From Podospora anserina (taxonomy: Eukaryota), in the NCBI GenBank assembly GCA_017654855.1, contig CM030332.1:4960001-5024000 (forward strand): DNA of 64,000 nucleotides. Reading direction: 5' to 3'. The notes under the pieces are model-generated. The model was given only the letters and a program-made list of their open reading frames with translations, did not search any database and had not been told where the DNA came from. The position numbers and the translations under genes were made by a program. This document shows, one piece after another, positions 23 through 38,160 of this stretch (positions are counted from its first letter, which is position 1; each line of letters begins with the position of its first letter).

Positions 23-3000
23 TTGGACATATCAGACCCAGGATCTGTTATCAAGGCCGCCAAACTGATTGCGACCTTTGCGAATGAGATCGAGAGACTG
101 GGCGGTGTCAAGTTTCTGGAGGATCTCGAGAAGATCAGAAACAATCAAACACCACCGAAATCAAACACAGACCCACCAAGTACCTCCATATCTGCCGATC
201 CAGAGAATCCAAAGCCCGAGGAAGCCAGTGGAAGCCAATCTGGCACCTCCCAAGCCCAGGAGACCAAGGAAGCCCAAACCAGCACAGCCACGGGTGAGAC
301 CGTTGCCATCAAGGACCACGACGTTCCCGCAAAGGCAGAAGAAATCACTGCCAAGGATCAGGCGGTTCAAGCAGTGCCTCCTGAGAAGGAGAAATCCTCC
401 CCAGAAGAATCCCCGGCGAAGGACGATGACACAGAAGGTGCCAGGGAGTCTTCCAAGGAAGACCCTCCTAAGGACGCTTCTCTAGACACCACGACAGAGA
501 AGAAAGATCGGGAATCCTCCGTGGAAGATGGCAAAGAGGATGGCAAGGAAGATGTAATTCCGGAGGGCATAGAAAAGAAGGACGAACCCCAGAAGGATGA
601 AAGTCCAAAGGAGGAATCTAAGGCGGAGCCCACTGATGATGATCCCAAAGAGACTGATAGTGAAGTCAAGGAGGAAGGGACTAAGGAGGAGGAGGGGGAG
701 GCGAAGGAGAGCGACGTTAAGGATAAGGCCAAGGAAGGAGAGACCAAAGAGAGCGAGGCCAAGGAAGAGATGACAGATGAGAACAAGCCAGAGGAAGCCA
801 AGGAGGAGGCTAAGGAGGAGGTCAAGGAGGAAACCCCAGAAGAAGTCAAGCAAGAACCCCCACCAGCGCCGGCGCCCGCTCCGTTACCTTTGCCCGATCC
901 TCCACACGACCCTTTCAAAGGTGTCAGAGCCGACCCCACCGAAACAGAAGAGATACCCTTGGATGCCAACGGAAAACCAAAGCCGAGCGCCAGCCGGCCG
1001 GGTATGCCCATTCTTCCCGCCCTCGGTCGGAGATGGGTGGCTAAGGAATCTGACGGCGTCGAACTGTTGGCCCCTGAAAAGGAATGGGAGCGCCGCAAAA
1101 AGGAACTGGGCGAGAAGAGCTTAGCGATTGACCAGCTCATGGCCATGGTTGGTCTTGAACAAGTCAAGTCAGAATTTCTTGCCGTCAAGTCTACCATTGA
1201 CGCGGCAAAGAACAGAAGAGGGATGCTTCGAAGACAAGAGTTCAATCTTGCGCTGATCGGCAATCCGGGAACGGGCAAGAAGACGCTGGCGACTATCTAC
1301 AGGACTTTGCTCAAGGAATGCGCCGCATGGTCTTCTGTCAACAGCCCGCACAATGAGAAGCGGTCCGGATTTGACTTTCAGGCGGACAAGGATATTGAAG
1401 GTTTCCACCTGGTGCTAAACAACTACGGCGAGAACTCCAAGGTCTTTGTCTTTATCGACTCCATCGAGGGGATGACGGGTTCCCTCAGGGCAGACCTCTT
1501 GTACACACTGGACCGTCATGCCGAGCGTCTTCGGCTGGTGGTTGTCATTGCTGGTACCGAGACGGCGATGAACAAGCTTTTGGCTTCGCGACCGAGCGGG
1601 AGATGGCAGTTTCCTCGACGGTTGACGATTAAGGATTACGATGACGAACAACTGCGTCTGATCTTTCTCCAGATGGTCCGACACAATGGATTCACCATCG
1701 AAGGGGGGGAGACCGGGCCGTACCCTCGTATTGTGGCCAAACGGGTTGCTCGGAACCGAGAGTCTGGTGGTTTCGCCAACGCCTATGATCTCGTGCTGGC
1801 TTGGGAGAAGATACTGGACCGACAGGCGGCAAGGCTTGACCTGGAGCACGCGGCGTGGAAGGCTGCCGAGGACAAGCGAGTCGAAGAGTGGGAGGCGGTG
1901 CTGGAAAAGAAGCGTGCTAACCTGAGAGAGCTGCTCAAGGAGAATCAGTCTCTGCAGGCAACTAAGGAGTGGTTGACAGAAGAGCTAGAGGTCGCGACTC
2001 AAAAGCTGGAAGAAAAGAAGCAAGAGCGAGAGCACTTGAAAGAGAAGGCGCTCTCCTCGAACGAGTCATCAGTCACCGAGCCCAAGGATGTCGAGAAGCC
2101 TGAGGAAGCCGTCAAGACCGAAGCGGTTGCTCAGCCTACAGAAGTTCTCAAGACTGAAGAGCCTGCCCAGGCCGAGGCCGTGGAAAAGGCTGTCGAACCT
2201 GAGACCGAGGCTGTGGAGGTTGAAGGAGAAGGTCTTAAGACTGTGGAAGAAGGCGTCAAACCTGTGGAAGAAGATGTCAAGCCTGTGGAAGAAGACGTCA
2301 AGCCCGATCAGGGAGGTGTCAAACCTGAGTCTGAAGCTGTGAAAGCCGGGGAAGAAGGCGCCGACACCAACCAAGGAGGTGTCAAACCCACAGGAGAAGA
2401 TGTCGAGCCTGAGAAGGAAGGCGTCGAATCCGCGAAGGAAAAGGTTGATCCGGAGAAAGAAGAAGTCAAATCTGCAGAAGAGGCTACACCCAAGCAGGAA
2501 GCTGCAAATTCCGAATCAGAAGACGTTGGGAAGGATGCCAAAGTCGAAAAAGAAGATCCCAAGGAGAAACAACGCGTGCTGAGCCCAGAAGAGGTTGAGA
2601 TTGCCGCTAAGATCGAGGAGCTTAAGAAGGCAATCGAGGAGGGCGAGGAGATGTTGTCTAGCCTGGTCGAGTACAAGAACTGCAGGGGCCAGGAGATCAC
2701 CGCTCGTTTGATTAAGTTGTTGAAGTACAAGAAGCTCCCAATGCCCGTTTCAGTGGACGACAAAACTTCTGTTCCGAAGGAGCCGTCGGAGAAGTCCGAG
2801 ATGTTGACGGATAATGATTCGAAGGACGAGAGAACCGGGGTTCAGAAGGCGGACCCAAGCTCTGCCGAAGGCAAGATTAAGTTTAATTTTGATGAGAAGA
2901 ATTTGGAGCTTGAGAAGGATGGGGACAAGAAAAATGGGGGACTCGAGGAAGACGAGGAGCCCAACAAAGACGAGGATGCCAGCAAGAACGAGGATGCCAG

Positions 3001-5410
3001 CAAGAACGAGGATGCCAGCAAAGACGAGGAGCCCGAGAAGGAAGTCGAGCCTAGCAGGGACATGGAGTCTACTAAGGATGCCGAGTCTTCCACCAAGGAC
3101 ATCAAGACTAGCCAGGACGAGAAGCAAGCCAGAGAAGAGGGGGCAACTGACGGCGAGACTACGGCCGAGGATGAAGCCAAGGCACGACAACTCACCGAGC
3201 AAGACACGAAGGCCGACACCGACGGCCAGTCAGACAAGAAATCAACCGAGGTCGAGACCAAGGCCGAAGATGAAAAGAGCGCTTTCACTGATGAGAGTGA
3301 TGAGAGTGATGAAGTGGACCTCTCGTTTCTGTCGCAGGGTCCAGCGCCAAAGCCCAACACCCGACTTCTCACCAAGGAAGACATCATCGGACCGGAGCCC
3401 GAGGATATTCGGGACAAGAGCAAGGCTTGGAAAGAGCTCAAAAAAATGGCCGGCCTCGAGAGCGTCAAGAAAGCGATTGGCGAGCTGCTCGACAGGGCCA
3501 AAGCCAATTATCGTCGCGAAGTCCTCGGCAAGGAACCACTCAAGACCTCCTTGAACCAAGTCTTTTTGGGTCCTCCCGGTACTGGCAAGACTACTGTAGC
3601 TAAGCTTTACGGCCAAATTCTGGCCGAGATTGGGCTTTTGTCCACGAAAGAGGTGGTATTCAAGACACCAGCGGATTTCATTGGGCAGTACATCGGTGAA
3701 TCCGAGGTCAAGACTGCCCATATACTCGACTCAACGATTGGAAAGGTGCTTATCATCGACGATGCCCACATGTTCTATCACGGTGGTCGTCCGGGCACGA
3801 CGCACGAGTCGGATGAGTTCCGTCTTAGCTGTATCGATGTCATGATCTCCAAGATTCACAACCAACCAGGCGAAGATCGATGTGTTTTGCTTCTCGGTTA
3901 TCCTGACATGATGGAGGAGATGTTCCAAAAGTGCAACCCTGGCTTGCGGCGACGATTTCCCCTGGAGGAGGCCTTCCGGTTCCAGAGCTACGATGACAAG
4001 ACGCTGAATGAAATTCTACGGTTGAAAATGGCCAAGGAGGAGATCACGGCTGATGAGGGAGCCATAGAAGTGGCAGCTGAAGTTCTCCGGAGAGCGAGGG
4101 ACCGTCCTAACTTTGGCAATGGTGGTGATGTTGACAACCTGCTGAACCAAGCCAAGACTCGATATCGCGCCAGGACCAAGGCGAAGGCGGAAGCGGAAGC
4201 CGAAGGTGTAGAGAAACAATGCACGGAAAAGCCAGTCGAGCTGCCCCCGGTCACTCGGGTCGACATCGAAGAAGCTGTGGCTGGAGAACAACTAGCCCAA
4301 GCCCAGGTCGACCTGCTGACTGCCGTCAAAACCAAGGCAGCCGAACCTCCAACAGATAGCATTCAGCCCGAGGAAGAAGAGCTCGAGTCACCTCCACCAA
4401 CGGAAACAACCGACAAACCCACAGACAATGCCGACATTCTCACTCACTCGGAAGCCAGCATCGTCCTCACTCGCGAGGATTTTGACCCAGACTGGAACCG
4501 CGGCGCCACTGCCTCCTCGAAGTGTAAATCCCTCTTCTCCTCCCTCATCGGCTACGAGTCCATCATTTCCAAATTCGAAGGCTATCAACGCCTGGCAGCA
4601 AACATGCGCCGCCGTGGCAAAGACCCGCGCGAAATCGTCCCCTTCACCTTCATCTTCAAAGGACCCCCCGGCACCGGCAAAACCCACACCGCACGCATCA
4701 TCGGCCAAATCTTTTACGACATGGGCTTCTTGTCCACCAACGAAGTGATTGAATGCTCTGCCAGCAACCTCATAGGCCAATACATGGGCCACACCTCGCC
4801 CAAAGTGATCAACCTATTTGAAAAAGCCCTCGGAAAAGTCCTCTTCATCGACGAAGCCTACCGTCTCGGGGGGGGCAACCGCGCCACGGGGCATGCTTCT
4901 TACGAAGAGGAGGCAATTGGAGAACTAGTCGATTGCATGACCAAGCCACGGTACCTCCGCAAAATGATTATTGTTCTGGCGGGTTACGACAAGGACATGG
5001 ATAACCTCATGAAGGTCAACGCGGGACTGAGGGGGAGGTTTGCGACAGAAATCAACTTTCCCACCATGACGGCTTCCAAGGCGAAGCAGCATTTGGAGAA
5101 TTTGTTGCTCAAGGAGGATATTGAGCTACGGGATGAGTTTGATCCTGGGGAGGAGGAGAGGGAGAAGGTGTTGAGGTATTTGCATCAGCTGGGGAAGACG
5201 GCCGGGTGGGCGAATGCGAGGGATGTGAAGAGTTTGGCGGCGGCGGTGACGGGGCAGGTTTATAGGGATGTGGATTTGGATGAGCTTGAGAGGGAGGAGA
5301 ATGAGGAGGAGGTAGTCAAGAGGAAGCTGTTGAGGGTTAGTACGAAGGAGTTGAATGGGCATCTGAGGGAGATGTTGAAGCAGAGGATGAGGAGCGGGGG
5401 GGTGGCTTGA
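23..5410 (+). CDS. Large acidic AAA+ ATPase with three CbbX/SpoVK-type AAA modules; 5' end probably lies upstream of the window
   Basis: 1795-aa ORF with three Walker A motifs (GNPGTGKK, GPPGTGKT, GPPGTGKT), Walker B-like VFIDS, LIIDDA and LFIDEA, plus family-typical NPGLRRRF/NAGLRGRF and FGNGGDV/WANARDV segments. The ORF track starts it at a TTG, so the true start is unresolved. Confidence 0.85.
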   Translation: MDISDPGSVIKAAKLIATFANEIERLGGVKFLEDLEKIRNNQTPPKSNTDPPSTSISADPENPKPEEASGSQSGTSQAQETKEAQTSTATGETVAIKDHDVPAKAEEITAKDQAVQAVPPEKEKSSPEESPAKDDDTEGARESSKEDPPKDASLDTTTEKKDRESSVEDGKEDGKEDVIPEGIEKKDEPQKDESPKEESKAEPTDDDPKETDSEVKEEGTKEEEGEAKESDVKDKAKEGETKESEAKEEMTDENKPEEAKEEAKEEVKEETPEEVKQEPPPAPAPAPLPLPDPPHDPFKGVRADPTETEEIPLDANGKPKPSASRPGMPILPALGRRWVAKESDGVELLAPEKEWERRKKELGEKSLAIDQLMAMVGLEQVKSEFLAVKSTIDAAKNRRGMLRRQEFNLALIGNPGTGKKTLATIYRTLLKECAAWSSVNSPHNEKRSGFDFQADKDIEGFHLVLNNYGENSKVFVFIDSIEGMTGSLRADLLYTLDRHAERLRLVVVIAGTETAMNKLLASRPSGRWQFPRRLTIKDYDDEQLRLIFLQMVRHNGFTIEGGETGPYPRIVAKRVARNRESGGFANAYDLVLAWEKILDRQAARLDLEHAAWKAAEDKRVEEWEAVLEKKRANLRELLKENQSLQATKEWLTEELEVATQKLEEKKQEREHLKEKALSSNESSVTEPKDVEKPEEAVKTEAVAQPTEVLKTEEPAQAEAVEKAVEPETEAVEVEGEGLKTVEEGVKPVEEDVKPVEEDVKPDQGGVKPESEAVKAGEEGADTNQGGVKPTGEDVEPEKEGVESAKEKVDPEKEEVKSAEEATPKQEAANSESEDVGKDAKVEKEDPKEKQRVLSPEEVEIAAKIEELKKAIEEGEEMLSSLVEYKNCRGQEITARLIKLLKYKKLPMPVSVDDKTSVPKEPSEKSEMLTDNDSKDERTGVQKADPSSAEGKIKFNFDEKNLELEKDGDKKNGGLEEDEEPNKDEDASKNEDASKNEDASKDEEPEKEVEPSRDMESTKDAESSTKDIKTSQDEKQAREEGATDGETTAEDEAKARQLTEQDTKADTDGQSDKKSTEVETKAEDEKSAFTDESDESDEVDLSFLSQGPAPKPNTRLLTKEDIIGPEPEDIRDKSKAWKELKKMAGLESVKKAIGELLDRAKANYRREVLGKEPLKTSLNQVFLGPPGTGKTTVAKLYGQILAEIGLLSTKEVVFKTPADFIGQYIGESEVKTAHILDSTIGKVLIIDDAHMFYHGGRPGTTHESDEFRLSCIDVMISKIHNQPGEDRCVLLLGYPDMMEEMFQKCNPGLRRRFPLEEAFRFQSYDDKTLNEILRLKMAKEEITADEGAIEVAAEVLRRARDRPNFGNGGDVDNLLNQAKTRYRARTKAKAEAEAEGVEKQCTEKPVELPPVTRVDIEEAVAGEQLAQAQVDLLTAVKTKAAEPPTDSIQPEEEELESPPPTETTDKPTDNADILTHSEASIVLTREDFDPDWNRGATASSKCKSLFSSLIGYESIISKFEGYQRLAANMRRRGKDPREIVPFTFIFKGPPGTGKTHTARIIGQIFYDMGFLSTNEVIECSASNLIGQYMGHTSPKVINLFEKALGKVLFIDEAYRLGGGNRATGHASYEEEAIGELVDCMTKPRYLRKMIIVLAGYDKDMDNLMKVNAGLRGRFATEINFPTMTASKAKQHLENLLLKEDIELRDEFDPGEEEREKVLRYLHQLGKTAGWANARDVKSLAAAVTGQVYRDVDLDELEREENEEEVVKRKLLRVSTKELNGHLREMLKQRMRSGGVA

Positions 5411-33630: not shown

Positions 33631-35251
33631 ATGTTACGGTCAACATCGCTGCTCCTTTCGTTATTTGCTTTCCTGCTATGCTGGGGGGCTGCGCTTGTGT
33701 CGGCTGTTAGCACCTCCGGCAACAGGTTGCTGGCTGTGTTTGATGAAGTGGGCGAGAAGGAGAATTATAGCAAGTTTTTGGGCGATTTAGAGGGTATGTT
33801 TGCAGAGGATGGACTGGGAATGGGATAGGGAGCTGGAATGCTGATCAATTGGTTGTGAATTACAGGCAGAGGATTCCAAATCACATATGAGACCCCCAAG
33901 AGCGAGTCCCTCGTCCTCTTCCACCTCGGCGAACGAGCTTACGATCATGTCATCTTCTTCCCGACCAAGACAAAGGGTATACTATTCTCTTGTTTCCTCT
34001 CCAAACATACCCCATTACTGACACCATGCGCTTTTAGGACTCGGCCCCAACCTGACGCCCCAAATTCTCGTCAACTTCCTCAACGCCAAGGGCAACATCC
34101 TCCACACCCTCTCCTCCGAGACTACAACCCCCAACACCCTCGTCTCCCTCCTCGCCGAGCTCGACATCACCCTCCCCACCGAACGCACCGGCCTCGTGGT
34201 GGACCACTTCTCCTACGATACCCTCTCCGGCGCCGAAACCCACGATGTTCTCGCCCTCCCCCCACCCGTCCCAGTGCGCAGTGATATCTCCCCCCTCTTC
34301 TCCGCCGGCGCCCCCAAAGACGCCCTCCTCGCCTTCCCCCACGGCGTTGGCGCTGTCCTCGGCCCCCGCGAGCATCTGACCCCCATCCTCCGCGCCCCCA
34401 AGACCGCCTACTCCTACAACCCCAAGGAGCAAGCCGACGTCCTCGATGTCGCCGACCTCTTTGCCGCCGGCCAGCAGCTCTCCCTCGTCACCGCTTTCCA
34501 AGCGATCAACTCTGCCCGTTTTGTCCTTCTCGGTTCTGCCGAAATGCTCCAAGACAAGTGGTTCGTCACCGAGATCGCCGCCCCAGGTGGTAAATCCGTC
34601 AAGACCTTCAACCGCGAGTTCGCCAAGCGTGTCTCCGCCTGGACGTTCCAGGAGTTGGGTGTTTTGAGGGTGAACTGGATCGAGCACCACCTCAACGAGG
34701 TGGCTGCTGTTAACGAGTCAAACCCCCATATCTATAGGGTAAAGAATGATGTTGTATGTATCCCCCCCCCCCTATGTAACCCACCTTTTATCATCAACTA
34801 ACAATGGCGATAATGCAAGACCTACACCATCTCCCTCTCGGAATACGCCTACGACAAGTGGACCTCCTTCTCCCTCCCCGCCAACGACGTCCTCCAGCTC
34901 GAGTTCTCCATGCTCTCCCCCTTCCACCGCTTGCCTCTGACCCTCGACGAGACCCACTCCACCCCCGAAGCCTCGGCTTACACCGTCTCGTTCAAACTTC
35001 CCGATCAGCACGGCATCTTCAACTTCAAGGTCAATTACAAGCGCCCCTTCTTCACCAACGTCGAGGAGAAGAACACTGTGTCTGTCAGACACATGGCCCA
35101 CGACGAGTGGCCCCGCAGCTTTGTCATTAGCGGTGCCTGGCCTTGGATTGCGGGCATCGGCGCGACGGTGAGCGGGTGGGTGGTGTTTGTTGCTTTGTGG
35201 ATGTACAGTGCCCCTACGGGTAAGAAGGTGGGGAGCAAAAAGACCAACTAG
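33631..35251 (+). CDS. WBP1: Oligosaccharyltransferase beta subunit Wbp1/OST48; introns at about 33794-33865, 33977-34037 and 34754-34819
   Basis: Signal peptide, YSKFLGDLE, WTFQELGVLRV, LEFSMLSPFHR, FKLPDQHGIFNFKVNYKRP, a C-terminal TM segment and a KKxx ER-retrieval signal (KKTN). Confidence 0.95.
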
Positions 35252-35577
35252 ATATGGGGGGAAGTGATGTAATGGGTGGGTGATTGAAAAAAAAGAACAA
35301 GGTCTTTTTTTATTTAAATTATCTATGTACAATTGTGGTTGATTTGTTTAGGTTTTCGTTGGAGCATGCAAAAAGATACACCGGCAAGGCGTCAAAGTCT
35401 AGGTCTGAGAATATATTGAATGAACCTGAACATGTCTGGAACTGATGTTATGAAACTCCTACCCAAGCACATGACCATAATGCTATCTAGACTGGAGTCA
35501 GAGCTCGCTTGAGCCTCAAGCCATCCACCAACTGCACATTCAGAAACGACGCACACAAAACCAAACATATCAATAAT

Positions 35578-35703
35578 GCCCTCAGATTAGCTCTCTTCTG
35601 TTCCCACTGACAACCTGACAATCCACGCTCGGTAGAGAGACAGTGGAAAAGCGTCGGCTGCCTGCAAATTTGGCTTTTTGGATACCTTTGGTCATCACCA
35701 GGC
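35578..35703 (-). ncRNA. Candidate box C/D snoRNA (~126 nt)
   Basis: Minus strand GCCTG-GTGATGA (box C) ... CTGA (box D)-GGGC with a 4-bp terminal stem and an internal TTCCACTG/CAGTGGGA hairpin, downstream of a GTATCC donor. No target identified. Confidence 0.5.
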
Positions 35704-37345
35704 ATGCGTTTGGTTTGGTTTTGGTTTTGGGGGTACAAAAAGGATACCTTGTTTCTTCTCAAAAATTAACTTTGCGAAAATAAGAAAGAAATTGAGAAAG
35801 GAGAGTCGACAGAATGAGATTGGAAAAGCATTCACCCTCCACCTAGTCCATCTACCCAGGGCAGAACACACCCTTGGGATTTTTTGAGCCAAGTGAAAAA
35901 GAGGATCTTCCGGTCTCTGGCTTACGCTACCGGCGTTCACGTCCACCAGTGAGGGTCGATATGGCACCTTTTGCAGCGATATCTTCTGCCCAACAGGTCA
36001 TTTCTTCGCCGTGGAACAAAACACACCGGATCCAGGTGGGGCAAGGACGACAGGGTCCTGTGTGAAAACACTACTGGTTACCGGAGATCGCCAGTGTGGG
36101 GGGAGGAAAGATGGGAGTCGGTGAAAGAGTGTGGCCTGCCTTGAGCCAATAGACAAGATGGCGATGGTTGCTGTGGTGCTGATGGATGCCGGCCTGTGAC
36201 TTCACAGACAGGCTGCTCGATGGCCGAAGTGAAGGAATGTTAAACTGAAACAGTGTGGTATTTGGTGGAAGCTTCTCTCTCCCATTTCCTCGCCTTTGAA
36301 CCAACCCTTGAAACCAAGCACGATTGCGAGCCGCTCCGATTGAAAACTACTTTTGTGACCGTCACTGGTGCTGCGCTGACATGTCTCCTGATTGCTTCTT
36401 TTCAGAAACTCAAAAGTCGACACCGGGCGCACCTCTGGAAATTGCTAATTGTCGTCATAGCGGCTTGGCTTCTTGTAACGAGAACCGATAGGGAAAGGGA
36501 GGCGAGGGAGAAGAGGTGATGTGTGCCATATGAAAACGATGTTCGTGCAAGGCTGCTCAGATATCCGTTCTTGATTATTCATGCTCTCCCAAGCCCTCTA
36601 GTAAGGGCTGGATGAGTCGGAAGGTCGGGTTTAGCTCGTCCCTGATGTTTCTTCATGGCAGGATATGTGTGTGAAGGAGGGTTGTTTGCTCTTGAATAAC
36701 CAAAGCTGTCAGTAGACATCACTTGATGTTCTCTGTTGGCTGAAGATGAAAGATTGTGGTGAAATCGATCCAATCTCAAAAACGAGATCCATCTGCCGTT
36801 ATAATAGAAAGAGACCGAGGCAGTCGTGACGGTTGTCGAAGGTCATGAAGTCGAGGCATGGTTAGAGGTAACCGCCCGCCTGAGGAGGGCTGCGCAGCTT
36901 GACAGCAGAACCGCTTGATCAGATCGTAACGAGATCTTGATCGCGTTGTTGGATGATAAATAAAACTATTAGAATAACAAGAAGAAACGCGGGAGATGAT
37001 GCTGAAGCTATGCCTTCAGATGTGACGAGAAGGCAGGCCGCAGTGAGGTCGATGTGAAGCTCCAACCGCTGATGAGAATGGAATGAGGTCGCAGGAAGAG
37101 TTGAGCTGGAAGAAACGCGCTGAAGACGCTCGAGCCACAGCGCGGTAGCGCCACAACCGCGCTAGCCTGCTCTAAAACCAACCTCCATCCATAAGGCTGT
37201 GAATTTCCATGTCAGGCTGTGCGCGCGCATCTTGAATATATCAGCGACACCATCACCAGCGACGCCAACTTCGCGATCGCTTTCTCTACCACTCCCCACA
37301 ACACCACACTCAACTAACAAATCAGGCCAGCGCCAATTCTTCAAA

Positions 37346-38160
37346 ATGGTCAGTACATAACCCCCCTCAACAATATTACATGGCAGCTCGCTGACCGTTC
37401 CCCCCCCCCCTCCACCCAGGCGCGCAACTCCGAAAAAGCCCAGTCCATGCTCTTCCGCTTCCGCGAAGCCCAAGCCGCCGACCTCGGAATCATCGACGCA
37501 GGCCGAACCCGCCGTCCCCGCGCCATCACCGAGCAAACATCCATCCCCGCCTGCGAGAAATGGCGTGGCCAGGTCCTCAAAGAAATCTCCCGCAAGGTCT
37601 CCCGAATCCAAGACATCTCTCTCTCCGACTACCAAATCCGCGACCTGAACGATGAGATCAACAAGCTCATGCGGGAGAAACACATGTGGGAGATCCAAAT
37701 CAAGAACCTGGGCGGGCCAAATTACATGAGGGGTGGGGGGAAGGTGTATGATGAGGCTGGGAGGGAGATTCAAGGTGGTGGGAAGGGGTATAGGTATTTT
37801 GGACGGGCGAAGGAGCTGCCGGGGGTGAAAGAGCTGTTTGAGGCGGCGACGAAGAAGAGGGAGGAGGATGAGAAGCCGTTGGAGGAGAGGACGGATTTGA
37901 ATAGGAGGAACGTGGATGCGGGGTATTATGGTTATGCGCCTGGGGAGGAGGATGAGCTGTTGCTGGAGTATGAGAAACTCAAGGAGAAGGAGGCGTTTGA
38001 GGCGCTGAGGAAGGCGGGGAACAAAGAGGCACCGCCGGGGTGGGAGCCATTGCCGGGTGATATTGGGGATGGGAGAGTGTGGGAGTTGCCGACGTTGGAT
38101 GAGGTGCAGCAGGAGCTGATTGACAGGAGGAGGGCGAGGTTGTTGGATCAGTTACAGTAA
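37346..38160 (+). CDS. ISY1: Pre-mRNA splicing factor Isy1; intron at 37349-37419 directly after the ATG
   Basis: ATG|GTCAGT...GCTGAC...CAG|GCGCGCAAC gives MARNSEKAQSMLFRFRE; IRDLNDEINKLMREK and YRYFGRAKELPGVKELF. Confidence 0.96.

Follow-up and report, generated by a model that had tools for sequence, protein, structure and literature searches.

Polycistronic units of small nucleolar RNAs (snoRNAs) are established in yeasts and plants. For Neurospora crassa, six clusters of box C/D RNAs with UHG-like hosts have been described, and the same survey predicts four sites in small nuclear RNAs (snRNAs), namely U6-Am47, U5-Am62, U2-Gm183 and U2-Am31 (PMC2780460, cited throughout from excerpts). Sites at U2 C40/41 or U4 A65 do not occur among the rows of its Table 1 contained in these excerpts, and the strings 'U2-4' and 'U4-6' are absent from the main text of a paper on the fungal snoRNAome (PMC5824354). 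In Drosophila, the small Cajal body-specific RNA scaRNA:MeU2-C41 (mgU2-41) is a verified guide for the U2 residue that is equivalent to Cm40 of vertebrates and Schizosaccharomyces pombe. According to the available sections of the 2018 paper that describes it, no ortholog of this fly guide was found in other species (PMC5733568); MBII-19 is named for the human U2 site in the table of a later review (PMC7960923, in part). Flies also possess mgU4-65 (PMC3884663).

Here we analyze a 64,000-nucleotide stretch of Podospora anserina contig CM030332.1 (termed the window) and, within it, the 2.1-kb spacer between two genes on the + strand, WBP1, with its stop at 35251, and ISY1, with its ATG at 37346. 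We conclude, with a probability of roughly 0.85, that this spacer is a snoRNA gene locus, in which three box C/D guide RNAs, termed B, C and A, lie on the minus strand, divergent from ISY1, in a ~1.9-kb unspliced, non-coding transcribed stretch. The locus resembles the polycistronic C/D clusters of yeasts, plants and N. crassa in that several C/D RNAs on the same strand, in conserved order, lie in what is probably one transcribed unit free of open reading frames (ORFs). It differs from the N. crassa clusters, whose hosts are spliced and carry their snoRNAs mostly in introns (PMC2780460, excerpts), in that it shows no splicing.

The box C/D RNAs of the spacer

We compared the spacer with 79 fungal metagenome loci encoding ISY1, which had been collected by an ISY1 protein scan of metagenome contigs and were oriented as the window. 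Two conserved blocks were recovered by blastn, one at 35575-35721 in 11 loci and the other at 36331-36381 in two. A census of 10-mers, in which the spacer (35252-37345) was compared with the 13 loci carrying any of the elements described below, gave seven conserved blocks. Six of these are boxes, guides or stems of RNAs A, B and C and the seventh is a low-complexity word, which is the only conserved 10-mer found in the spacer outside the three RNAs. The order ISY1, B, C, A is kept on the strand opposite ISY1 in related loci, and in L001, L002, L005, L009 and L013 WBP1 follows beyond A. Thus, the conserved parts of the spacer are those expected of box C/D RNA genes. All elements of the three RNAs are given below on the minus strand, 5' to 3'.

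RNA B (109 nt, 36553-36661) is defined by a conserved guide, D box and stem and by covariation of the stem. It consists of the 5' stem CUGC (36661-36658), the C box AUGAAGA (36656-36650), the antisense element AAGAACGGAUAU (36572-36561), the D box CUGA (36560-36557) and the 3' stem GCAG (36556-36553). Nine loci have the same guide, D box and GCAG in the interval from RNA C to ISY1, and on the same strand. A C box is found 87-142 nt upstream in all 10 B sequences, and in nine of them the flanks form a terminal stem of at least 4 bp, with one unpaired base beside box C. The C box of the nine orthologs reads AUGAUGA, GUGAUGA, AUGACGA, GUGACGA or GUGAAGA, and the D box is CUGA, with CCGA in the L009 copy. 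In alignment A4, 75.7% of the cells of the stem are paired, compared to 20-47% when the partner is slid. Four of its seven pairs are changed on both sides (e.g., CUGC/GCAG versus CCGC/GCGG), and the covariation score was reached by 5 of 500 shuffles. B is also the sole near-match of Rfam in the spacer, a partial hit to ceN89 that spans a C'-like box as well as the guide AAGAACGGAUAU and CUGA; with E 0.28 over 2.2 kb and E 0.03 over 241 nt, this match is by itself not significant. The consensus of ceN89 (RF01662, Caenorhabditis) shares a 16-nt guide plus D box with B, but only 24 of the 78 model positions match B, below the gathering score. A literature search for 'ceN89' returned no relevant paper.

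RNA C (137 nt, 36329-36465) contains the second blastn block, which corresponds to the 22-mer AAGUAGUUUUCAAUCGGAGCGG. This 22-mer is found in 11 of the 79 loci at no more than four mismatches, and L005 was added with a 16-mer. The RNA starts with the 5' stem AGCCGC (36465-36460) and the C box AUGACGA (36458-36452), which lies 120 nt upstream. Toward the 3' end follow a C'-like GUGACGG (36365-36359), the antisense element UAGUUUUCAAU (36349-36339), the D box CGGA (36338-36335) and the 3' stem GCGGCU (36334-36329), which pairs with AGCCGC. The 11-mer guide is invariant in 12 sequences. A C box together with complementary flanks is present in six of the 11 sequences examined (the window, L001, L002, L009, L011 and L060), and the sequences of the flanks differ among them. 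In alignment A5 the stem is 78.6% paired, as against 26-50% with the partner slid; six of seven pairs are changed on both sides, and none of 500 shuffles reaches the score. The terminal stems of both B and C covary.

RNA A (130 nt, 35576-35705) corresponds to the blastn block found in 11 loci and is further supported by alignments A1 and A3 and by the covariance model R1. Its 5' stem AUGCCU (35705-35700) and C box GUGAUGA (35698-35692) are followed by a conserved D'-side element, UCCAAAAAGCCAAAUUUGCAGGC (35682-35660), which is invariant over its 23 nt, and by a variable loop. Then come a C'-like GUGGGAA (35607-35601), the D-side element AAGAGAGCUAAU (35597-35586), the D box CUGA (35585-35582) and the 3' stem GGGCAU (35581-35576). 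In the window, A thus has a perfect GUGAUGA ... CUGA pair and a 6-bp terminal stem. A strict C/D scan of both strands of the window (128 kb), which required xUGAxGA with at most one deviation, CUGA and a stem of at least 5 bp, recovered three candidates, of which RNA A is the sole one on the minus strand. The model R1 was built from 11 copies of A, which match it by construction. Outside this training set it finds L044 with 64.6 bits (E ~3.5e-16), and it gives a weak syntenic match in L060 (E ~0.06). No Rfam family matches RNA A. Its terminal stem, which in the alignment comprises 3-4 bp (CCC/GGG core), does not vary and therefore neither supports nor opposes pairing. A stem flanking the variable loop (GGCAGC/GUUGUC versus GCCAAC/GUUGGC) is visible by eye; it was not counted because the alignment register differs between clades.

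By description, RNA A resembles Nc_CD_54 (N. crassa CD54), an intergenic RNA of 125 nt that is found in all Pezizomycotina and has a conserved D' element, for which pairing with U6 is predicted (PMC5824354). A is ~130 nt long, non-intronic and present across related loci, its D'-side element is the most conserved one, and it may belong to the Nc_CD_54 family. More generally, A, B or C may already be contained in the N. crassa or snoStrip family catalogues. A literature search with the guide strings and their complements found nothing relevant.

At the gathering threshold, Rfam has no match in the whole window. At E<=10 all matches are weak, and those to snoR30 (+ strand, 37036-37122), mir-1994, JPX, SNORD96 and snoU49 were judged to be due to chance. 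Two further observations concern the arrangement of the RNAs. In L058 (1466-3308) the snoRNA cluster is present twice, in inverted orientation, with A at 1869-1992 (+) and 2800-2924 (-) and B at 1466 (+) and 3308 (-), which may be a genuine inverted duplication or an artefact of palindromic assembly. In L003 (~340-365) and L009 (~4195-4220), on the minus strand after the C box of B, AGAGAGC(U/G)AUGAU resembles the D-side guide of A, which suggests that a guide element may have moved between neighboring snoRNAs.

Predicted targets in U2 and U4

Possible targets were searched for on the reverse complements of antisense probes for human U2 and U4, as printed in the available part of PMC7293007; an RNase H oligonucleotide across U2 C40 is printed in PMC8336889. 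With short snRNA motifs, no snRNA gene was found in the window or in the 79 loci. The guide of B forms 10 contiguous pairs, two of them G-U, with human U2 36-45, and places C40 opposite the fifth base from box D. The retrieved U2 segment ends at C45, which is the limit of this duplex. The guide of C forms 10 Watson-Crick pairs with human U4 61-70, and A65 is opposite the fifth base from box D. Both human U2 Cm40 and U4 Am65 are listed as 2'-O-methyl sites in the excerpt of a review (PMC7960923). Judged by complementarity, B and C look aimed at these residues, and we predict B to be a guide for U2 C40 and C for U4 A65. The window contains 992 C[U/G]GA boxes; besides that of B, only four attain 10 bp on U2, and U4 is matched over 10 bp by no box other than that of C.

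The predictions can be compared to the guides described in animals. As in Drosophila mgU2-41, the D-box antisense element of B puts the same U2 cytidine at the fifth position; B differs in being fungal and part of a three-gene cluster, and the two are likened by target and not by sequence homology. C is likened to the scaRNA mgU4-65 of Drosophila and to human U4 Am65, for which a guide is listed in the excerpted review (PMC7960923), in that its D-box element is perfectly complementary over 10 nt to human U4 61-70 and A65 takes the fifth position. It differs in that most copies of C have the D box CGGA, and the comparison was made on human, not fungal, U4.

It could be argued that B and C are real C/D RNAs which guide the methylation of ribosomal RNA (rRNA), or of another RNA, and that they fit U2 and U4 by coincidence. 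In fungi, rRNA is the target of most C/D RNAs, and in N. crassa 64 of the 71 predicted sites are on rRNA (PMC2780460, excerpts). Moreover, B and C were compared with the human U2 and U4 segments alone, and the four other boxes of the window that reach 10 bp on the U2 segment do so by chance. We nevertheless consider this explanation unlikely, since the fifth-base rule lands exactly on two known methylated residues, C40 and A65. In addition, the variation of B preserves its pairing with U2: three positions of the guide differ between orthologs (C/U, G/A and A/G), and both variants can pair with U2 G42, U41 and U39, whereas a perfect complement of the guide of the window is mismatched by A at position 6. 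The invariance of the 11-mer of C in 12 sequences and the lack of any other box in the window that matches U4 point in the same direction. Finally, the 16-nt guide plus D box shared with C. elegans ceN89 fits a deeply conserved target, such as the branch-point region of U2.

Besides its guide, RNA C of the window carries the 11-nt element CAAUUAGCAAU (36451-36441), directly after the C box. It is identical to an antisense probe for human U4 54-64, beside the target of the D guide. The element is specific to the window and not conserved in the other loci, and it may be a lineage-specific second U4 element.

For RNA A, complements of its two elements were found only at the snoRNA genes themselves, in the window and the 79 loci. 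On the human U2 and U4 segments, neither element has a convincing partner. As a weak lead, pairing at U2 16-22 would make G19 the residue opposite the fifth base, provided that D' is UUGC. The D element of A may also match six bases in the U4-pairing segment of U6, but no convincing pairing of A with U6 was found, with no U6 sequence at hand for this comparison.

Transcription of the spacer

We placed assembled contigs of four runs from four studies, which are labelled 'RNA?' only, on the window. The runs are RNA, because all of them skip the introns of WBP1 (33793-33864, 33976-34036 and 34754-34819) and of ISY1 (~37349-37419). In each of the four runs, one RNA-derived contig continues from the last spliced exon of WBP1 across the spacer without any joint. 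The spacer-side ends of these contigs are at 37058, 37072, 37139 and 37193, one per run, and the ISY1 contigs of the four runs start at 37224-37279. Thus, the whole spacer is represented in RNA and is unspliced. A contig that spans two genes does not prove a single transcript, and contigs can lose rare forms.

The unspliced, ORF-free stretch that contains A, C and B (35252-37193, putatively minus strand) is a putative polycistronic precursor, which would start near 37060-37190 and run into the 3' untranslated region (UTR) of WBP1. Uncovered parts were not used as evidence, except for a weak hint from the gap at 37194-37223, between the snoRNA-side and the ISY1 contigs, in which none of the four runs has a listed contig piece. 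Judged from these contig ends, which are weak evidence, the gap is likely the core of a shared divergent promoter. A pyrimidine-rich tract near 37100 had been called similar to a transcription start site in the first-pass annotation. The contig ends at 37058-37193 fit a start nearby, but contigs carry neither strand nor transcript ends.

Taking the polycistronic snoRNA units of yeasts and plants as a basis, we propose the following mechanism. RNA polymerase II would start ~30-170 bp from the ISY1 start region and produce a single precursor through B, C and A into the 3' UTR of WBP1. The core C/D proteins would bind each C/D kink-turn, closed by its terminal stem, and endo- and exonucleases would trim the spacers to leave three stable RNAs of ~109, 137 and 130 nt. 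Each RNA would then pair with its target via the element 5' of the D box, and the methyltransferase would modify the residue opposite the fifth guide base, which for C would be the U4 snRNA residue equivalent to human A65. The shared strand, the same order across loci and the continuous RNA cover are compatible with such a polycistronic unit; the contigs lack strand. We infer the strand of the precursor, co-transcription, processing, the ends of the small RNAs and the methylation itself.

In a host gene of the UHG or gas5 type, the snoRNAs would instead be released from the introns of a spliced transcript. Most C/D snoRNAs of N. crassa are intronic (45/55; PMC2780460, excerpts). In addition, in L006, L011, L044, L048 and L058 a canonical short intron, with GTATGT, CTAAC or CTGAC as a branch-like site and YAG, lies 4-10 nt after RNA C. 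This intron is absent in the window, L013 and L001, and by its distribution it appears to have been gained or lost within the snoRNA precursor. We regard a spliced host as very improbable for the window, where no joint is seen in 35252-37193 in any of the four RNA runs and two common 5' splice-site patterns, GTA[ATC]GT and GT[AG]AGT, have no match in 35200-37400 on either strand. Even in the five loci that have the intron, the C motif lies 5' of it, and in L006, L011 and L058 RNA A lies downstream of the 3' splice site.

The transcript could also represent only a long 3' UTR or read-through of WBP1 on the plus strand, the conserved blocks being DNA-level or 3'-UTR regulatory elements. This would account for the strandless contigs that are continuous with the WBP1 exons in 4/4 runs. 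However, a C box, a guide, a D box and complementary flanks can be read from the blocks on the minus strand only, and these flanks covary in a way that keeps their pairing. The order of the blocks relative to ISY1 is kept in loci without a WBP1 match upstream. Furthermore, in 4/4 runs the ISY1 contigs are preceded by a gap of no more than 30-170 nt, which fits divergent starts better than a read-through that halts shortly before the next gene. Mere read-through therefore seems to us still a little less credible than a spliced host.

A small protein-coding mRNA as the source of the spacer transcript has a negligible probability. Between 35252 and 37345, the + strand has no ATG-initiated ORF of at least 40 aa and the minus strand just four (58, 72, 45 and 46 aa). 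Pfam gave no match for any of them at E<=1, and they lack ORF-like conservation in tblastn searches of the related loci, where the matches of the 72-aa ORF are short pieces over nucleotide-conserved parts of RNA A, split by indels, and those of the 58-, 46- and 45-aa ORFs are at chance level. The earlier statement that no credible ORF lies between WBP1 and ISY1 agrees with the ORF scan, Pfam and tblastn.

Several observations weigh against the spacer being a snoRNA locus with the targets proposed above. The assignment of targets rests on human segments and not on the U2, U4 and rRNA of the organism from which the window derives. Position 3 of the B guide is G in L002, L007, L009 and L048 and A in L003, a mismatch to U2 A38, and the B guide of L002, when tested on U2, gives a contiguous run of 4 bp only. 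In the window, the C box of B (AUGAAGA) is off the consensus at one position and its stem has 4 bp only, and for the window as a whole the match to ceN89 lacks significance, there being none at gathering. The D box of C is CGGA, a one-base variant, in 10 of 12 sequences including the window, and CUGA in L009 and L060. In the other five of the 11 C sequences, the criteria used gave no canonical C box within 190 nt that had a matching stem. The elements of A match U2 weakly, with 7 bp on U2 16-22 at best and 3-6 bp elsewhere on human U2 and U4. Finally, the contigs give neither strand nor ends nor the accumulation of stable RNAs of ~110-140 nt.

The placed contigs and the window content led to some additional observations. 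At 35303, in the overlap of the WBP1 3' UTR and the snoRNA precursor, the window has T and all four RNA runs have C, which looks like a strain difference. The start codon of ISY1 is directly followed by a 71-nt intron (ATG|GTCAGT..., 37346-37419), for which joints are seen in 4/4 runs. Within the ISY1 coding exon, the contig of run X2 skips 95 nt (37709-37805), with GG..AC ends and five ambiguous bases; since these ends are non-canonical, the skip is probably an artefact, of repeat-mediated assembly or of reverse transcription. The window derives from a filamentous-ascomycete-like fungus.

Telomerase-like motifs and meaning of the locus

In the first-pass annotation, the spacer had been described as a hairpin-rich region that ends in an Sm-like site and a 5' splice site, and a telomerase-like RNA with spliceosomal 3'-end cleavage or a snoRNA host transcript had been considered. 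For comparison, telomerase RNA (TER) of N. crassa is 2049 nt long; its template is 3'-AAUCCCAAU-5', and its core of template-pseudoknot and P6/P6.1 is conserved (PMC3592445, excerpts). The telomeres of filamentous fungi are described as TTAGGG (PMC4993307, in the part available). The 3' end of Aspergillus TER carries an Sm-like site followed by a 5' splice site that is not canonical, AUA(A/C)GU, which drives cleavage (PMC4299874, excerpts). The locus shares with N. crassa TER and Aspergillus TER1 the size class, the lack of an ORF and Pol II-type transcription beside protein genes, and it differs from them in having no template, no AUA(A/C)GU and apparently no conserved core.

All motif strings quoted earlier are present at, or a few bases from, the coordinates given for them. 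The Sm-like site AAUUUUUG (35767-35760) and the 5' splice site GUAUCC (35746-35741) lie within 35741-35767 on the minus strand, in the spacer 5' of RNA A. The Sm-like string does exist, but the window has 16 copies of the pattern A[AT]TTTT[TG]G, which makes a single AAUUUUUG unremarkable; it contains no conserved 10-mer and was not seen upstream of RNA A in 11 orthologous stretches. The proposed splice site AAG|GTATCC is off both common 5' splice-site patterns, has no contig joint and is likewise unseen in the 11 orthologous flanks. We judge both to be chance motifs. The supposed branch site GCTAAT is nothing but the last six bases of the D-side antisense element of RNA A, directly 5' of box D, and the proposed template ACCUCUAACC falls in a part without any conserved 10-mer.

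The description as hairpin-rich did not hold. Folding of 160-nt windows, each compared with 60 dinucleotide shuffles, gave no excess of structure, with mean z-scores of +0.05 (+ strand) and -0.21 (- strand) inside the region and of +0.09 and +0.29 outside. Two of 23 folding windows on the minus strand (36560-36719 and 36880-37039) and none of 23 on the plus strand have z<=-2. Two of the listed inverted repeats do belong to the RNAs described here: the one at 36592-36609 forms an internal hairpin in B, and the one at 36349-36418 is contained in C.

The idea of a telomerase RNA of the filamentous-fungal type, whose 3' end is formed by spliceosomal first-step cleavage after an Sm site, draws on a ~1.9-kb unspliced, ORF-free transcribed stretch of the right size class (N. 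crassa TER has 2049 nt; PMC3592445, excerpts), on AAUUUUUG followed by GU at 35767-35741 and on ACCUCUAACC with a 3-nt terminal repeat, as expected of a template. Yet neither CCCTAA nor TTAGGG occurs on either strand in 35200-37400, TAACCCTAA does not occur anywhere in the window, and ATA[AC]GT is absent from 35200-37400. No telomerase family of Rfam matches at E<=10, a result obtained with no dedicated P6/P6.1 model. The conserved blocks are C/D boxes and guides and not a template, a pseudoknot or P6/P6.1; there is no joint, and neither the supposed template, Sm site and splice site nor the trio of Sm, splice and branch sites is conserved. We therefore reject a telomerase RNA, which is close to refuted. 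The alternative suggestion of a snoRNA host transcript was right in substance, as the spacer has three box C/D RNAs on the minus strand, apparently in an unspliced precursor and not in introns. A caution follows from this: in the spacers of fungi, strings that look like Sm, splice or branch sites can be parts of snoRNA genes.

The analysis replaces the wrong telomerase reading by a base-precise annotation of three box C/D RNA genes that Rfam does not detect. No fungal guide for U2 C40 or U4 A65 was found in two surveys of fungal snoRNAs (main text; PMC2780460, excerpts, and PMC5824354). Provided that the predicted targets are correct, two conserved marks of the spliceosome, U2 Cm40 and U4 Am65, would have their fungal guides in this locus. 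Its conserved head-to-head position with ISY1 hints at co-regulation. More tentatively, many filamentous ascomycetes might have a three-gene C/D unit that is devoted to spliceosomal snRNAs, not to rRNA, and lies head-to-head with ISY1. In such a unit, guides for U2 Cm40 and U4 Am65 would be joined by a third RNA, whose invariant 14-23-nt element, complementary to a U-tract, would possibly pair with an snRNA at or near its Sm-type site, and the modification of snRNAs would be linked with the expression of a spliceosome protein through the divergent promoter that both sides share. Cm40 has been reported in S. pombe and, should the targets be true, the function of these two marks would be testable by simple deletions in a filamentous fungus.

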